Notes: generated by a model from the letters alone, not told the origin. Counted from the first letter of the stretch, positions 3,154 to 61,338 are shown. The stretch is DNA of 64,000 nt from an uncultured Acidobacteriaceae bacterium (GCA_963760415.1 CAVXDA010000015.1:168184-232183); one strand, 5' to 3'. Program-made: numbers and translations.

Positions 3154-4867
3154 TTACGTGCGGGGGTTGAATCGGTAAGGACGATAGACCGGCTCCCAGA
3201 CTTTGGCGCGGATACGAGACTCCAAGGTTTGCTCGTTAAGCGGACCTGCAACGCCATCCTCGATCGCCTGAAGCGCGACCGCCTTAGCCACCGCGAAGGA
3301 CACGTGAGCGAAGTTCCGAAACCGGCGGCAACAATCGTCCCGACTTATTGCGCCGCGTGGGAGAAAGTTCCGCGAGACATTTGGCGGCAGCCATGAACAT
3401 GGTGTCGGTGACGCGCCGCGCTTCTACCGATAGGATACCCAAACCCATTCCGGGGAAGATGTACGAGTTGTTGGTCTGATCGATCGGCACTTCGCGACCA
3501 TTCCAGTTCACCGCAGCGAATGGGCTGCCGGTACCGATGAGCGCGCGCCCGTCCGTCCACTTCAGCAAGTCTGTTGGAGTAGCCTCCGAGCGCGACGTAG
3601 GATTTGATAGCGGGAAAATCACCGGCCTTTCGACAGTGGCAGCCATCGCTCGGATCACCTCCTGCGTGAAGACGCCAGCTTGTCCCGAGACCCCAATGAG
3701 CGTCGTTGGTTTGGCGTTCCTCACCACATCGAGCAGGCTAATGCGATCGTTATCCCCCAGTTGCCAATTGGTGATCGCGGAACGAGGTTGCACAAATGCC
3801 TGCTGCGCCGGACGTATCGCCGCCATGCCCTCCACCAGCAACCCGTCTTTATCGACCGCAAAAAAGCGGCGGCGCGCCTCCGTGTCGCTCAGGCCTGCGT
3901 TCTTCATCGCGGTCACCAGAAGAGTGCCGATTCCGATACCGGCTGATCCTGCTCCGAAGAGCGCAATGCGCTGCTCGGTCAAGGGCACGCCGGTAACGTT
4001 GATCGCAGCAAGCAGGGTCCCCGCAGCCACGGCCGCTGTCCCTTGGATATCGTCGTTAAAGGTGCAGAGCCGGTCGCGATAGCGTTCGAGCAATCGCCCC
4101 GCGTTGATGCCGGCAAAGTCCTCCCATTGCAACAGCACGTGGGGCCAGCGCGCGATCACAGCGCTGACGAAAGCCTCGACGAAATCGTCGTACTCGGCGC
4201 CGCGTACCCGTTGGTGACGCCACCCGACATAGACAGGATCTTCGAGGCGCTCCACGTTGTCGGTACCGACATCGAGCAATACCGGTAAACACTCCTGGGG
4301 GTGAATGCCGGCGCAGGCCGTATAGAGCGCCAGCTTGCCGATGGGGATTCCCATGCCCCCGGCACCCTGGTCGCCGAGCCCGAGAATGCGCTCGCCATCG
4401 CTGACCACGATCGCACGGATCGCGTCATAGCGGTGGTGCCCGAGGATCTCGCGAATTCTGTTCTGATTGGGATAGCTGAGAAACAGCCCGCGGGGTTTGC
4501 GCCAGATCTCGCTGAAGCGTTGGCATCCTTCGCCGACCGTCGGCGTGTACACCAGCGGCATCATCTCTTCGAGGTTGCGCACTAGTGCGGCGTAAAACAG
4601 GGTTTCATTCGTGTCCTGCAGGTCCCGCAGATAGGCATAGCGCTCGAAATCAGTTTCAAAGTTGCGCAGCACCTTGAGACGGCGTGCCGCCTGATCTTCA
4701 AGATTGCCAACATGTGGGGGAAGCAGTCCGTGCAGGGCGAAGTCGCTGCGCTCGTTTTCGCTGAACGCGGTTCCCTTGTTCAGCATGGGAAAGTTAATCA
4801 GGTCGAAGCCCGAGAGCCCGGTCTCCAGAATCCCCTCATCCGAGATGCGATATTTCATACCGTTCAC
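3154..4867 (-). pseudogene. NAD(P)-dependent malic enzyme; the reading frame is broken near the 3' end (probably an assembly indel)
   Basis: 527-aa ORF reading MKYRISDEGILETGLSGFDLINFPMLNKGTAFSENER...YTPTVGEGC...GLGDQGAGGMGIPIGKL. The ORF stops at 3284. Removing one base near 3307 restores the conserved tail HVSFAVAKAVALQAIEDGVAGPLNEQTLESRIRAKVWEPVYRPY..*, which ends at 3154. Confidence 0.85.
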
Positions 4868-4964
4868 CAGTCAGAGGAATAATCGTGCGCCTGGTTTCCT
4901 CGCGGAGTATATAGTTTGGGGCAGTTGGGGAGCTACAACGGAAATTCCGGCTGAAGATTCTGGA

Positions 4965-55105: not shown

Positions 55106-55306
55106 CTAGATCTCCGGATAGAGATCGAAAAATGCTTCCACGCTATTGCGCAACTGTTTTTCGATATCGTCCTTCGATCCCTCGACGATATGCAGAGTCA
55201 CCTGGGCCTCGCGGCCATTCTTCAGCTTCACTGTGCCCGCACCGACCTCTGCGATTTCCTCTGAGGGTAGAAGACGCATGCCGTACACCAATGTAAGCTT
55301 TGCCAT
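55106..55306 (-). CDS. Small hypothetical protein (66 aa)
   Basis: MAKLTLVYGMRLLPSEEIAEVGAGTVKLKNGREAQVTLHIVEGSKDDIEKQLRNSVEAFFDLYPEI. I recognise no family. Coding potential is judged only from ORF length and composition. Confidence 0.4.
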   Translation of the reverse strand: MAKLTLVYGMRLLPSEEIAEVGAGTVKLKNGREAQVTLHIVEGSKDDIEKQLRNSVEAFFDLYPEI

Positions 55307-55465
55307 GCTCACGATTCTAACCGTTTCGCAAACAACCGGCACTTGTTAGAATCCGGAGGGCATACCGTTCGTTAAGCATCTGAGCCCTAAGCTTTTATTT
55401 AGTTGGATCTGCCGCGCCGGGGGGCTTTGCATCTTCCGGCGTGGAGGAGAATCAAACCGACTTCT

Positions 55466-56422
55466 ATGTCAGATAACGTTCGCAACGTCATAATTATCGG
55501 CTCCGGATGTTCGGGGCTGACCGCAGCGCTCTATTCAGCGCGCGCCAATCTCAGCCCGCTGGTTATTGACGGCCACGAGCCCGGTGGCCAGCTCGCCATC
55601 ACCACGCTGGTGGAAAACTTTCCCGGCTTTCCGGAGGGCATTCAAGGTCCGGAGCTGATCGACAACATGCGCAAGCAGGCGGCCCGTTTCGGCGCGGAGT
55701 ACAAAGCCGGTCACGTGGTGAAGGTGGATCTCAGCCAGAAGACGGCCGACCTGGGCAAGAAGCCGATCGAGGTGAATCTCGGTCGCGAGACCTTGCTGAC
55801 GCGAACGCTGATTATCGCCAGTGGCGCGTCGGCGCGGTGGCTCGGCCTGCCCAGCGAGCAAGCCCTGATTGGCCACGGCGTTTCTTCCTGCGCCACCTGC
55901 GATGGGTTTTTCTTTTCGGGCAAAGAGATTGTCGTGATCGGCGGCGGCGACTCCGCGATGGAGGAGGCGCTGTTTCTTACCCGATTCGCGACCAAGGTCA
56001 CCATCATTCATCGGCGCGGTGAATTTCGTGCGTCGAAGATCATGCTCGACCGCGCTCGCAAGCACGAGCAGATTCACTTCCTCACCGACACAGTGGTGGA
56101 CGACGTTTACGACGTCGATAAGAAGGAGGTCACCGGACTTCGCTTGCGCAACGTGAAAAGCGGCGAGCAGTGGGACTTCCCGACCAGCGCCCTGTTCCTG
56201 GGTATCGGACACACGCCCAACGCGGACTTTGTGGGCGACCAACTCAAGCGGGACGGTGAAGGGTATCTCATCCCCGAGGGATTCGTTGGCTCACGTGTGC
56301 CGGGAGTGTTTATCAGCGGTGACGTAGCCGACCGCCACTATCGCCAGGCGGTTACCGCTGCGGGCACCGGATGCATGGCCGCGCTGGAAGTGGAGAAGTA
56401 TCTGGAAGCAATTGGCAAGTGA
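55466..56422 (+). CDS. trxB: Thioredoxin-disulfide reductase
   Basis: VIIIGSGCSGLTAALYSARANL (FAD GxGxxG), redox-active CATCDG, IVVIGGGDSAMEEALFL (NADPH site), and ...GVFISGDVADRHYRQAVTAAGTGCMAALE. Confidence 0.93.
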   Translation: MSDNVRNVIIIGSGCSGLTAALYSARANLSPLVIDGHEPGGQLAITTLVENFPGFPEGIQGPELIDNMRKQAARFGAEYKAGHVVKVDLSQKTADLGKKPIEVNLGRETLLTRTLIIASGASARWLGLPSEQALIGHGVSSCATCDGFFFSGKEIVVIGGGDSAMEEALFLTRFATKVTIIHRRGEFRASKIMLDRARKHEQIHFLTDTVVDDVYDVDKKEVTGLRLRNVKSGEQWDFPTSALFLGIGHTPNADFVGDQLKRDGEGYLIPEGFVGSRVPGVFISGDVADRHYRQAVTAAGTGCMAALEVEKYLEAIGK

Positions 56423-56444
56423 TGCACGTCGTGAATGATCTTAA

Positions 56445-57878
56445 TGTAGGCGCCGAAAGGCCGGCATTACAGCGGGAGAATCGAACCTGTCCCCTAGCGC
56501 TCCAACCGCCTTCGTCAGTTACAGCCGGGAGGACTCCGGCTTTGTCCTTCGCCTGGTCCGGGATTTGAAGTCTGCTGGAGCAAAGGTGTGGCTGGACCAA
56601 CTGGACATCCAGGCCGGGAGGAACTGGGACACCTCCGTCCATGCCGCACTCGCCCGCTGTTCCTGGGTGCTGGCGGTCCTTTCTCCGGCTTTCGTCCGCT
56701 CCAAGAGTGCCCAGGACGAAGTCGGGCTGGCGCTGGATGAGAACAAGACGTTCATCCCCATCTATTACCAAAACTGCATTGTGCCGTGGCGATTGCGCCG
56801 GGTGCAGCACGTCGATTTCAGAAGCGACTATGAGCCCGCGCTGGAAAAACTTCTCACAGCTCTGCGGGCAAAGCAGAAACCGGCCAAGCCTGGGGCCACA
56901 AAGCAGCCTCGGCGTTCCGCACCGGGTCGGGGCCAATCGCCGGTCGAACGAAAGCGGCTGGAACAGCTGAAAGAAGTCGTATCGCAGCAGGATCGCGCCG
57001 CCGATGCAGAAGCTTCCCCGGAACCCGCAGACGAATTCTCTCGCGCTGAGCGGGCGGGGCAACTCATTCTGACTCGGACCCAACTGCGGCCGCGCGTGGG
57101 GTTGGTGCTGGGCTCGGGCCTGGGCGATTTCGCCAGCGAATTGCAGGACGCAGTCCGCATCCCATTTGCCGAGATCCCGTTTTTCCCCACGAGCACGGCG
57201 ATCGGTCACGCCGGGGCGCTGGTTATCGGCACCTTTGATGGCATGCCGATCGCGGTCATGCAGGGGCGGGTCCACTTGTACGAGGGTTACAGCTTTCAGC
57301 AGGTTGCATTTCCGATGCGAGTGCTGGCGTGGATGGGCGTGAATGCTCTCGTTCTTACCAACGCCGCGGGCGGCATTAACGCGGAGTACGAGTGTGGCGC
57401 GCTGGTTGTGCTGCGCGATCACATCAACCTGCAAGGCGGCAGCCCGTTGACCGGTCCGAACGACGACCGGTTCGGACCCCGCTTTCCGGACATGACCGAC
57501 GCCTATAACGCGACGTTCCGGCGTTTCGTGCTGGACGAAGCGGAGCGCTTGGGCGGCGGGATCCACGAAGGGGTTTACGCCGCGCTACATGGCCCCAGCT
57601 ACGAGACGCCGGCGGAGATCCGTGCGCTGCGCACGATTGGCGCCGATCTGGTCGGTATGTCAACCGTGCCCGAGGTGATTGTCGCCCGACACATGGGACT
57701 GGAGGTGCTCGCTATTTCGTGCGTGACGAACATGGCCGCCGGCATGACCGGCGAGAAGCTCACGCACACCGAAGTGATGGAGACCGGGCAGCGCATCCGT
57801 GGGACGTTTCTCGCGCTGCTGCGAGCGGTAGTGCCGAAGATCGCGCGCTATCTGGAGGAGCGCGGAGCCGCGGATTAA
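56445..57878 (+). CDS. TIR domain fused to purine nucleoside phosphorylase (PunA-type); the start is uncertain
   Basis: This frame is open from 56445 and carries the TIR segment (AFVSYSREDSGFVLRLVRDLKSAGAKVWLDQLDIQAGRNW...VLSPAFVRSKSAQDEVGLAL), a K/P/R/E-rich linker, and the PNP segment (VGLVLGSGLG, GHAGALVIG, MQGRVHLYEGY, LTNAAGGIN, GPSYETPAE, VGMSTVPEV, VTNMAAG). There is no ATG, GTG or TTG before 56565. The likely true start is the ATG at 56422 (TGATG overlap with the trxB stop) in the +1 frame, which would require an indel near 56500. Confidence 0.8.
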   Translation, partial: CRRRKAGITAGESNLSPSAPTAFVSYSREDSGFVLRLVRDLKSAGAKVWLDQLDIQAGRNWDTSVHAALARCSWVLAVLSPAFVRSKSAQDEVGLALDENKTFIPIYYQNCIVPWRLRRVQHVDFRSDYEPALEKLLTALRAKQKPAKPGATKQPRRSAPGRGQSPVERKRLEQLKEVVSQQDRAADAEASPEPADEFSRAERAGQLILTRTQLRPRVGLVLGSGLGDFASELQDAVRIPFAEIPFFPTSTAIGHAGALVIGTFDGMPIAVMQGRVHLYEGYSFQQVAFPMRVLAWMGVNALVLTNAAGGINAEYECGALVVLRDHINLQGGSPLTGPNDDRFGPRFPDMTDAYNATFRRFVLDEAERLGGGIHEGVYAALHGPSYETPAEIRALRTIGADLVGMSTVPEVIVARHMGLEVLAISCVTNMAAGMTGEKLTHTEVMETGQRIRGTFLALLRAVVPKIARYLEERGAAD

Positions 57879-57926: not shown

Positions 57927-58542
57927 ATGCCCACCGGGATCTACCTCATTGGCATTGCCGGACCTTCCGGGTCAGGAAAGAGCTTTCTGGCGCAGCACCT
58001 GAAGGCGGCTCTGGAAGCCGAGGTCCTGGAGGTTGATCGCTACTACCGGGACCTCTCGCACCTTCCCTTGGAGCAACGCGCGCGTATGAACTTTCGATGC
58101 GCCTGACGCCCTGGAGCATGAGCTTCTCATCGAGCAAGTTGCACGATTGCGAAATCGCGAGGCGGTGCAGCTACCGGTGTATGACTTCACCATCCACACG
58201 CGAACCGCCAAGACGGAAATGCTTCAGCCAACGAAGGTCATCATTGTAGAGGGGCTGTTTACGTTGCACTGGCCCGGCCTGCGTGAGCTGCTGGATACTA
58301 AAGTTTACGTGGACCTGAAAGACGAGGTCTGTCTCATGCGCCGCAAACAGCGCGACGTGCGGGAGCGTGGTCGCACGGAGCAGTCGGTGGTCGAGCAATT
58401 CGAGGCGACGGTGGCTCCCATGGCGCGGCGTTACGTGCATCCCACAATCGTCCACGCCGATGTGGTGGTGTCGGGTACTGAGCGCATTGAAGACGGAGTG
58501 GCGCGGGTGGTTAAGCACTATAAGGGGCGTACACGGGAATGA
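57927..58542 (+). pseudogene. udk: Uridine kinase, with one frameshift
   Basis: MPTGIYLIGIAGPSGSGKSFLAQHL...DRYYRDLSHLPLEQRARMNF, then a 1-bp insertion near 58094, then DAPDALEHELLIEQV...VQLPVYDFTIHTR...VIIVEGLFTLHW...LDTKVYVDL..EVCLMRRKQRDVRERGRT. Confidence 0.82.
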
Positions 58543-61338
58543 TCCATCGCATTCTTTGCGCAGCGCTCGTCGCACTTGCCGCCCTCATGGCTGCTGCGCA
58601 ATCGCCGGCGCAGGAGAAAGGAATTGCCCTCTCCCTCCAGCAAGACGCTGCACCTTCCGGTTCCGGGCGGATCGCAGCGCACCAACAGTTTTCCCACCGC
58701 AATAGCGTTGAGTCCCGATGGAAAGTTTCTGGCCATTCTGAACAATGGCCGGGGAACCGCGGAGTCAAAGTTTCAGCAGTCGATCGCTCTGCTCGATCTG
58801 ACGAGCAACCAGGTCCGCGACTTTCCGGACTCGCGTCTTGGCCTCAATGCCCGGCAGACATATTTCCTCGGCTTGGCGTGGAGCAGTGACGGCACTCGCT
58901 TGTATGCGTCAATGTCATCGTTAACCGATCCCGAGGGCAAGAAAGCGGGGGATACCGGCAACGGAATCGCCGTGTATCGGATGCAGAATAGCGGGTTGAC
59001 TCCCGAACGTTTTCTCAAGCTGCCGCTGGTCGAGCTGCCGAAGGACAAGCGATTTACCTACCAGGCCAAGCACGTCGCACGGGGACAAGCGATCCCCTAT
59101 CCGGCGGGTCTGGCAGTTGTAAAGGGCGAGGGTGGCGATGCGCTGCTGATCGCGGAAAATCTGGCGGATGACGTTGTTCTCCTAAGCCTGCAAACGGGGA
59201 AGGTGCTGCAGCGCTTCGACCTGAGCGCTGGTAAGTACATTCCAACAGGGTTTCCATACGGAGTCGTGGTAAACCGCGACGGCACGCGCGCGTGGTGCTC
59301 ATTGTGGAACGGGTCGCAAGTGGCGGAGCTGGATTTGCGATCCGGAAAGGTGGTGCGGCAGATCGCGCTGATGCCGCCGAAAGCCGCGACCGACGCCTCG
59401 TCCCATCCTACCGCGCTGCTGCTGAGTCCGGACGAGCGGTTCCTTTACGTGACGCTCTCGAACCGCGATGCCGTGGCCGTGATCTCCGCCGCCGACGGGC
59501 AGGTTGAGCGCTATCTGGACACGCGGTTGCCGGGTCAGACCTACGGCGGCAGCTATCCCAATGCGCTGGCGCAGTCGCCGGATGGGAGCAAGCTGTATGT
59601 TGCGAACGCGTCGTCGGATGCAGTGGCGGTGTTCGATACGACAAAGTCAGACGAGCGCGCCGCATATTTCATTCCTACAGAGTGGTACCCAACGGCGCTT
59701 GCCGTGCATGAGGACGAGCTCTTGATCGCGACCGGCAAGGGTGAAGGCACTGGTCCAAATGCAAGCTGGGAAGACAATCCAGAGCGTCCTGGTAAGCGAC
59801 AACATCCATATATCCCCTCGTTGATTCGCGGTTCGGTTGCGCGCGTAAACTTGCCCACCGCAGAGCGCGACCGCCAGAAGCTGACGCAAGAAGTCGTCCG
59901 CAGCAATCTGATGGAAGGTCGCACAGGCGAGATCAGCCTTCCAGCGCGGCGGTAATCCTATTCATCACGTGATCTACGTAATCAAGGAGAACCGTACTTA
60001 CGACCAGCTGTTTGGCGACATCCGCGAGGCGAATGGCGATCCTTCGCTGGTGATGTACGGCGAAGACATCACACCCAACCAGCATAAGCTGGCCCGGCAA
60101 TTTGGCATTCTCGACAACTTTTACGACAGCGGGGAGGTCTCCGGCGACGGGCACGTGTGGTCCACCTCGGCCATCACCAGCGATTACAACGAGAAGACGT
60201 GGCAGATCGTCTATCGCAGCAAGGAGCGCAGTTACGACTTCGAGGGGACGGTCGGTGACGTTGTGCCTATGAACATTGGCATCCCCGACATCGACGACCC
60301 GGCGACCGGCTATCTCTGGGGCAACCTGGCCCGCCATAACCTGACCTACCGCAATTACGGCGAGTTCGTGGAAACCTGGTGGTGCGAAGACATCAAGCAG
60401 AACAGCCCGGAGTCCAGCGGCGCTCCTAAGGAGCATCCGCCGGATTGCGCGCGCAAGGAGGTCAAGCCTGGAGAAGATCTTCCCGGAGAAGCTGGGCGGT
60501 GGCAAGAGCCCGTACAAGTTTGCGATTCCCTTGATCGCCTACGACGCGCGCCACCAAACCGGAATTGCGCGGGCACTTCGACCCCAACTACGCCGACTTC
60601 AAGGTCGAATATCCGGATCAGTTCCGCGCCGATGAGTTCTTGCGCGAGTTCGCCGGGTTTGTGCAGGCGCGCCAGAGCGGCGGCGGGCGAGCAGTTGCCG
60701 CAGTTCGTACTGCTGCGCCTGCCCAATGACCACACGGCGGGAACACGTCCCGGATCGCCAACGCCGAACGGGTCGGTCGCCGATAACGATCTCGCACTGG
60801 GTCGAGTAGTGGAAGCCGTGTCGCACAGCCCCTACTGGGACGACACCGCGATCTTCGTCCTCGAAGATGACGCGCAGGACGGCGCCGACCATGTGGATGC
60901 TCATCGCAGCATCGCGCTGGTGATCAGCAAATATTCGCCGGGTACGCCGCAGCAGCCCGCGCTCAATCACCAGTTCTACACCACGGTGAACGTGGTCCAT
61001 ACCATGGAAACGCTGCTGGGTCTTCCACCCATGAACAACAATGATGCGCTACGCCGCCGTGATGGCGCCGTTGTTCACCGGGGCGGGCGACCAGCCGTCC
61101 GTTCCAGGCCGACTACCGCAACCGCGACAATGGAATGATCTACCAGGCGAATCCCGCGAAAGCGCCGGGAGCGAAGGAGTCAGCCAAGTTGAATTTCTCC
61201 GTGGCCGACGCCGCCGATACCAACGTGTTGAATGCGATCCTGTGGCGAGCCGCTAAAGGAAATATTCCCATGCCGGCGCCGAAGCACACGGTGTTCCCGG
61301 CGGATGTGTCGCAGCGCCGCGACGCCGACGACAAGTGA
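58539..61338 (+). pseudogene. Bifunctional YncE-like beta-propeller / phosphoesterase (PLC/AcpA-type) family protein, at least 4 frameshifts
   Basis: Signal peptide MIHRILCAALVALAALMAAAQS. The propeller shows (FPTAIALSPDGKFLAILNNG, ...LAWSSDGTRLYAS, ...LLLSPDERFLYVT, ...LAQSPDGSKLYVAN). The phosphoesterase part shows (HVIYVIKENRTYDQLFGD..., NFYDSGEVSGDGHVWS, ..RLPNDHTAG.., VLEDDAQDGADHVDAHRS). The fragments are 58539-, 58576-59955, 59969-61138 and 61135-61338. Confidence 0.72.

Follow-up and report, generated by a model that had tools for sequence, protein, structure and literature searches.

A single-chain fusion of a TIR domain and a housekeeping-type purine nucleoside phosphorylase in uncultured soil Terriglobia

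TIR domains are NAD-cleaving immune modules, capable also of cyclisation and base exchange. They are normally attached to dedicated sensors, and in SPARTA, TIR-SAVED, TIR-STING, Cat1 and SARM1 they are activated through TIR-TIR contacts. Immune effectors with a purine nucleoside phosphorylase (PNP) fold form a clade of their own. This defensive clade, represented by Cap17 and DtcC, is distinct from DeoD and XapA (bioRxiv 10.1101/2023.01.24.525353), and in conflict systems TIR and PNPase are described as interchangeable effector domains rather than as parts of one chain (PMC8195603). Here we analyse a gene that joins the two, located in a 64,000-nt stretch of DNA (the window) from an uncultured Acidobacteriaceae bacterium (GCA_963760415.1, CAVXDA010000015.1:168184-232183). 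The gene encodes a TIR domain, a linker and a PunA-type PNP, and most likely spans 56487-57878 (463 aa plus stop); like all window features below, it lies on the plus strand unless stated otherwise. A preliminary description of this DNA had called a TIR joined to a housekeeping-looking PunA unfamiliar, and we found no such fusion described in the searchable literature; the architecture is apparently undescribed.

No stop interrupts the reading frame between 56445 and the TAA at 57876-57878, and Pfam profiles detect both TIR_2 and PNP_UDP_1 within the single translated chain. As first described, it is uninterrupted, with neither a stop nor a canonical in-frame start between 56802 and 57096, and every motif quoted for the TIR and PNP parts is present in the translation. 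Database searches recover full-length homologues: P0002-P0009 are 59-93% identical and all carry PF13676 and PF01048. Some ten further assemblies contain the single open reading frame (ORF), which nearly always has trxB and udk as its neighbours. It is uninterrupted in loci L001, L002, L003, L004/L005, L006, L012 and L013, and is shortened by a frameshift within the PNP half in L014 (= P0010). Short-read assemblies are among its sources, and sequences other than nanopore data come, for example, from JGI (one contig), Logan SRA (one contig) and ENA (k141 contigs). A conserved internal start for a free PNP isoform was not found: none is available in the window, and only four of nine loci have a GTG at -26. 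The fusion is real, a single chain of TIR and housekeeping-type PunA.

The TIR domain (56487-56861, residues 1-125) comprises the beta-A strand FVSYS, a loop with the sequence VWLDQLDIQAGRNW, and helix alpha-C bearing a Glu at the catalytic position. It matches Pfam TIR_2 (PF13676) at 97.4 bits, against a cut-off of 28, over model positions 2-122 of 122. An AlphaFold2 (AF2) model of the TIR alone has a predicted local distance difference test score (pLDDT) of 89.7, and Foldseek aligns it to solved TIRs with a probability of 1.00 and TMq of 0.73-0.84. The best matches are SPARTA TIR-APAZ (TMq 0.81-0.84) and SARM1 TIR (0.75-0.78), and AbTir is also among them. The motifs FVSYSRED and VLSPAFVRSKSAQDEVGLAL begin at 56511 and 56676, respectively. 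Glu78 (codon GAA, 56718-56720), previously proposed to occupy the position of the catalytic Glu of NADase TIRs, does so: within the segment QDEV it aligns with the Glu of the AbTIR family (7uxr), PdTIR (3h16) and Cat1 (9mud). Located at the start of helix alpha-C, it occupies an invariant column in all fusions, all solo relatives and 73 aligned family representatives. Omega, computed per segment (TIR, linker and PNP) for close pairs, is 0.07-0.13 for the TIR in comparisons with the window's closest relatives.

The PNP domain, of the PunA trimeric class (inosine/guanosine type), occupies 57030-57878 including the TAA stop. It scores 187 bits against Pfam PNP_UDP_1 (PF01048) and exceeds the cut-offs of three NCBIfam equivalog models: PRK08202 (361.8 versus 218 bits), TIGR01697 (332.1 versus 197.1) and TIGR01700 (320.1 versus 293.35). 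Among solved structures it matches 8swu at 306 bits and human or bovine PNP at about 250 bits. The quoted motifs begin at 57111 (GSGLG), 57207 (HAGALVIG), 57258 (MQGRVHLYEGY), 57357 (TNAAGG), 57591 (GPSYETPAE), 57651 (VGMSTVPE) and 57723 (VTNMAAG). The phosphate, ribose and base sites are complete, corresponding to human S33, H64, R84, H86, Y88, E201, M219, S220, N243 and H257; Asn243 is the 6-oxopurine determinant. Across 11 fusion PNPs and 73 standalone orthologues, all 15 active-site positions agree, with F/Y200 variable in both groups alike, and the fusion PNPs carry only two clade-specific substitutions, both away from the active site. Because the site is identical to that of the standalone enzymes and the two substitutions lie outside it, the PNP is not adapted to a new substrate. 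Omega for this half is 0.11-0.13 in comparisons with the window's closest relatives, and a search against the PADLOC defence models gave no match at E<=0.01. An identity of 50-60% to solved trimeric PNPs suggests that the PNP half forms a homotrimer, and it probably still performs ordinary phosphorolysis.

Between the two domains lies a low-complexity linker of about 56 aa (56862-57029) with one weak predicted helix. The K/P/R/E-rich linker of about 60 aa noted earlier thus corresponds to 56 residues with the composition A9 R7 P7 K6 Q6 E5. Its omega is nearly neutral, 0.58-0.96 for the window versus L001, L006 and L012; identity to distant fusions is 16-29%, and length varies from about 55 to 75 aa. 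The AF2 model of the fusion, a monomer, shows high confidence in both domains and low confidence in the linker between them (pLDDT 35-58). The linker is accordingly predicted to be a fast-evolving and mostly disordered tether.

Next in rank among matches to the PNP half come ordinary standalone enzymes, 285-292 aa long and sharing 74-80% identity with it. The closest of these, P0011 (80%) and P0024 (74%), lie in the synteny SpoIIE / small ORF / trxB / PNP / udk, and the order trxB / PNP / udk is common to the fusion loci and the standalone loci L007, L008 and L009. As the closest standalone PNPs hold the equivalent syntenic slot, we conclude that the TIR was added in place to a housekeeping punA. 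Only four GTDB species representatives carry the fusion, with the standalone gene present in dozens of neighbouring Terriglobia. The fusion has a narrow distribution, restricted to one small clade of Terriglobia (Acidobacteriota), uncultured and from soil, and strong purifying selection has acted on both domains since they were joined (omega ~0.1). The fusions cluster in a neighbour-joining tree of the PNP half, and the fusion TIRs form a clade apart from solo TIRs in the TIR tree; the simplest reading of these sequences would be one capture followed by some losses. Upstream of the standalone genes in L007 and L015, no TIR or linker remnants were found, and only the PNP's own N-terminal helix matches.

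Two other features of the PNP relatives were noted. Apparent N-terminal fusions on other related PNPs (L026, L029, L031, L033, L066, L072, L090 and others) were rejected as Arg-rich out-of-frame junk containing no domains. Just 5' of the standalone PNP in L015, an intergenic 36-nt tandem repeat (3870-4047; 4.9 copies, 91% matches) is present; it is not TIR-derived.

The closest free-standing relatives of the TIR half are small soil-metagenome proteins with 52-60% identity to it and with low-complexity, coiled-coil or transmembrane tails. An exhaustive search yielded 771 cluster representatives at E<=1e-30, in nearly all of which the TIR is N-terminal and the C-terminal region is of very variable length. 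Pfam partners in the 73 representatives scanned are Sel1, TPR, BNR/beta-propeller, Lcl_C, TonB_C and AAA/BTAD, and a transmembrane-like segment follows the TIR in about a quarter of representatives. Members bearing such a segment, with a predicted cytoplasmic TIR, look like receptors in their topology. PNP sequence occurs in one of the 150 nearest cluster representatives. No PNP lies within 2.5 kb of any of 80 metagenomic TIR loci, and a TIR-seeded metagenome scan for further fusions returned relatives at <=57% identity only, none with a PNP. Since the relatives of this TIR carry sensor or scaffold partners C-terminally, the PNP fills that slot in the fusion.

The family has further notable members. 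Giant proteins contain five to seven tandem TIR-like stretches, for example P0135 (1773 aa) and P0139 (2208 aa). In L092 (3329-5157), the solo TIR P0123 (128 aa) adjoins a tyrosine integrase, a YhcG_C nuclease-like gene and a UvrD_C-like gene, a neighbourhood which suggests that some members travel on mobile elements.

We favour, with moderate confidence, a reading in which an ordinary PunA trimer tethers three NADase-competent TIRs, the protein being a housekeeping PunA with a captured N-terminal TIR module. If the PNP forms its usual trimer, three TIRs would be held together on flexible leashes at high local concentration. The TIR half would cleave NAD(P)+, as a glycohydrolase or a cyclase, and its activity would depend on TIR-TIR association as in the systems named above, whose solved assemblies occur among the sequence and structure matches to the TIR half. 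Occupying the sensor/scaffold slot, the PNP may link NAD+ cleavage to the state of a nucleoside-salvage enzyme, which in turn could arrest growth or serve as a signal when cells face phage or stress. A weak CUG start could limit how much of the potentially toxic TIR is made.

Several observations weigh against this reading. Hydra TRR-2 and MyD88, non-enzymatic scaffolding TIRs, are among the top structural matches; the Trp of the AbTIR-type WxxxE motif is Ser in the fusion TIR; and the case for NADase activity consists of the conserved Glu and the modelled fold. The neighbourhood of the fusion loci is conserved and of housekeeping type, unlike a defence island, and genes for a partner effector or sensor were not seen nearby. 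In the neighbour-joining tree, the sole source for this point, the standalone L007 and L015 nest between the main fusion clade and L004, and the P0008 PNP is placed apart from the fusion cluster. Finally, a trimer that permanently concentrates three active NADases should be toxic, so some gating must exist.

Under one form of gating, the housekeeping PNP trimer would itself act as sensor within a single-protein device for immunity or stress: some alteration at the PNP would allow the TIRs to associate and deplete NAD+. We put this forward tentatively, as a possible but doubtful extension. Candidate triggers would be a surge of nucleoside or phosphate as phage infection breaks down nucleic acids, or the binding or inhibition of the PNP by a phage protein. 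Such a device would be a bacterial counterpart of the plant NLR "integrated decoy" or of metabolite-gated SARM1, with the enzyme still at its day job.

The TIR might instead be a non-catalytic assembly or interaction domain that builds higher-order PNP assemblies or recruits partners and cleaves no NAD. Scaffolding TIRs such as Hydra TRR-2 and MyD88 are among its best matches in sequence as well as structure, the WxxxE Trp is absent, and the housekeeping context speaks against a toxic enzyme. The Glu, however, is invariant throughout the fusions, solo relatives and family representatives, which is hard to explain without catalysis, and the closest bacterial structural neighbours are the NADase TIRs of SPARTA. 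We therefore regard a purely structural role as unlikely.

Metabolic coupling of the two halves is also on the unlikely side, and a little more so. The PNP would phosphorolyse a nucleoside made by the TIR, or the pair would degrade NAD and nicotinamide riboside to nicotinamide for salvage. A precedent for PNP in NAD metabolism exists in eukaryotes, where the enzyme is reported to cleave nicotinamide riboside to nicotinamide (PMC9345839), and it makes a looser role in NAD-related salvage conceivable. Both enzyme types cut N-glycosidic bonds, and the adjoining udk places the gene in a nucleoside-salvage context. Trimeric PNPs, however, require a nucleoside with a free 5'-OH, and ADP-ribose (ADPR) and cyclic ADPR (cADPR) isomers carry 5'-phosphates, so that by established enzymology they are not substrates of trimeric PNPs. 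The earlier suggestion that the PNP half acts on a (c)ADPR-type nucleoside made by the TIR is not supported, as the PNP site is unchanged at 15 of 15 positions relative to the standalone orthologues; a substrate relay is unlikely on both grounds. In addition, a tether of 55-75 aa with unconserved sequence (omega ~0.6-1) is ill-suited to substrate channelling, and relatives of the TIR have sensor repeats as partners rather than enzymes.

Thoeris-like signalling, in which a TIR-made cADPR isomer or base-exchange product would activate a remote effector and the PNP would serve as scaffold or purine-base supplier, is improbable. Cyclisation and base exchange are within the TIR repertoire, and weak TIR-level matches were obtained to ThsB models (15-22 bits, PADLOC) and to ThcB4 (29.9 bits, NCBIfam). 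These scores are far under the family cut-offs (220 bits for ThcB4), and they are exceeded by those of effector-type models, short-pAgo TIR and SAVED-TIR; in PADLOC these two and bSEFIR match at ~48 bits, at the level of the TIR domain only. No ThsA-like, SLOG or Macro effector occurs at any fusion locus, and no Thoeris-type effector gene (SIR2/SLOG, Macro or transmembrane) lies within +/-6 kb in L001-L006.

The start of the gene bears on a further alternative. The preliminary description had placed it at ATG 56422, overlapping the trxB TGA. That ATG is one base off the fusion frame and encodes an unrelated 48-aa ORF ending at 56568, so the fusion gene is not start/stop-coupled to trxB as had been claimed; a 64-nt spacer (56423-56486) separates the two genes. 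Close relatives differ by 1-nt indels right after the trxB stop, and this stretch is therefore non-coding. ATT 56466 was also rejected, being absent in L006, upstream of the Shine-Dalgarno-like sequence and out of frame in L001. No canonical in-frame start exists upstream of beta-A in the window, L013 or L014; the first ATG/GTG/TTG of the TIR-PNP frame in the window is TTG 56565, beyond the beta-A strand.

A probable non-canonical CTG (CUG) initiation codon is located at 56487-56489, 8 nt downstream of the Shine-Dalgarno-like GGGAG (56474-56478). CTG stands at codon -8 from the beta-A Phe in seven of nine loci compared (the window, L001, L006, L012, L013, L014 and L002), preceded in all seven by (A/G)GGAG (GGAG in L006) at a spacing of 7-8 nt. 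In L004, GTG replaces it at the equivalent codon, preceded by AGGAG-N7, and L003 has a TTG start six codons farther upstream. The codon just before the CTG is an in-frame TAA in L001. Between the CTG and the beta-A Phe, the motif P-x-A-F is conserved in all fusions and solo TIRs. This conservation makes a gene of 463 aa initiated by CUG at 56487 the most likely assignment. Since gene callers limited to ATG/GTG/TTG do not accept a CUG start, they cut the TIR short or begin it internally: it is truncated in P0001, P0006 and P0007, and an internal GTG is used in P0002-P0004. The database entry for the identical protein, P0001 (430 aa), begins at GTG 56586. The CUG start may thus conceal the TIR-PNP architecture from domain-architecture searches, and such fusions are possibly under-counted.

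It is highly improbable that the TIR is a relic, with translation from TTG 56565 or GTG 56586 yielding a PunA with a decaying N-terminal junk extension. The lack of a canonical start upstream of beta-A in the window, and the database gene call at GTG 56586, would fit such a relic. Purifying selection nevertheless extends over the whole TIR, including the codons 5' of 56565, with many synonymous and few amino-acid changes, and the conserved Shine-Dalgarno sequence, start codon and P-x-A-F all precede beta-A.

The genes around the fusion are conserved with it. At the fusion loci, and likewise around the closest standalone PNPs with the PNP in place of the fusion, the order is SpoIIE/HAMP (minus strand), a small ORF (minus strand), trxB, the fusion, udk, a large lactonase/phosphoesterase-like gene and glycogen phosphorylase. 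The trxB gene (thioredoxin-disulfide reductase, 318 aa; 55466-56422; Pfam Pyr_redox_2, 143.8 bits), whose product begins MSDNVRNVIIIGSG, is conserved upstream of the PNP gene whether this is fused or standalone, with a 318-aa orthologue also 5' of the PNP in L001-L004 and L006-L009. A promoter-like site at 56412-56439 is weak and a consensus match only, no convincing intrinsic terminator was found between trxB and the fusion gene, and ARAGORN reported no tRNA at the tRNA-like stretch examined (56470-56490). The udk gene (uridine kinase; 57927-58542; Pfam PRK, 94 bits on the C-terminal part) starts 48 nt 3' of the PNP stop. It is the conserved downstream neighbour, intact at 204-211 aa in L001, L002, L003, L006, L007, L008, L009 and L010.

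Two side observations concern these neighbours. Between trxB and the SpoIIE/HAMP gene, the minus strand holds a 78-aa ORF (55106-55342) with no Pfam match. Gene calls of 66-78 aa occupy the equivalent site and strand in L001, L002, L003, L006, L007, L008 and L009, so the ORF probably encodes a real conserved small protein. In L009, a beta-carbonic anhydrase gene (4158-4868; Pro_CA, 236 aa) is inserted between trxB and the standalone PNP, and the trxB-PNP junction is on this account a recurrent insertion point.

Downstream of the fusion, the window is indel-prone. A single extra C at 58095 (AACTTT-C-GATGCG) splits udk in two; it is absent from the aligned L001 and L006, where udk is 204 aa, and most likely represents a long-read assembly error rather than a pseudogene. 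The lactonase/phosphoesterase-like gene at approximately 58540-61335, which is intact in L001 (929 aa), matches in frames 1, 2, 1, 2, 3 and 1. These frame changes, at least four in 2.8 kb, suggest a poorly polished assembly. The window's nearest relatives are Microflora Danica long-read metagenome-assembled genomes, and single-base indels in the window are therefore untrustworthy. Despite these real frameshifts, the notion that an indel error in a nanopore assembly merged two genes into the fusion ORF is practically untenable, refuted by the comparative data: the ORF is intact in some ten further assemblies, the most divergent at 59% identity, and no conserved internal start for a separate PNP was found.

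In this fusion, an NADase-type TIR is attached at the native locus to a core salvage enzyme that has itself not changed, and selection has kept both halves through the diversification of the clade. If the TIR is active, the protein would directly and physically connect the metabolism of purine nucleosides with the destruction of NAD+, and would offer a simple system for studying how a constitutive oligomer keeps tethered TIRs silent.

Compared with housekeeping PunA (PNP-I), the C-terminal 282 aa of the fusion match over the full length with all site residues present, and the gene occupies the same trxB / PNP / udk slot as its standalone Terriglobia orthologues at 74-80% identity. The difference is an N-terminal addition of ~180 aa, TIR plus linker, seen in none of 73 standalone relatives. 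Cap17 of CBASS, DtcC of Detocs and the PNP_UDP effectors of fungal and bacterial NLRs belong to the same PF01048 superfamily. Unlike Cap17 and DtcC, the fusion PNP falls in the housekeeping PunA/XapA clade, with scores above the NCBIfam PNP equivalog cut-off and no PADLOC match; for these reasons the analogy with Detocs and CBASS PNP effectors, raised in the preliminary description, fails. No CBASS or Detocs operon surrounds the fusion, the neighbours at all fusion loci being housekeeping-type genes.

Like the solo or N-terminal TIR family of soil bacteria (P0121-P0283), the fusion has an N-terminal TIR followed by a low-complexity stretch, and it shares the invariant SYS, VW.D..DI..G..W and S...E, the last including the catalytic-position Glu; unlike in that family, the C-terminal partner is an enzyme. 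With SPARTA TIR-APAZ, TIR-SAVED, TIR-STING, Cat1 and SARM1, it shares the canonical TIR fold, the catalytic-position Glu and the attachment of the TIR to a partner domain that oligomerises, for the fusion as a probable trimer. By analogy, it also resembles SARM1 in placing a metabolite-binding domain beside the TIR. It departs from these NADase effectors in having no cyclase, Argonaute or CRISPR partner gene, in lying outside a defence island and in carrying an intact housekeeping enzyme where they carry a dedicated sensor. Within the theme of a TIR joined to an oligomerising partner, the fusion is unusual for its partner, a core metabolic enzyme that is unaltered and still encoded at its native locus.

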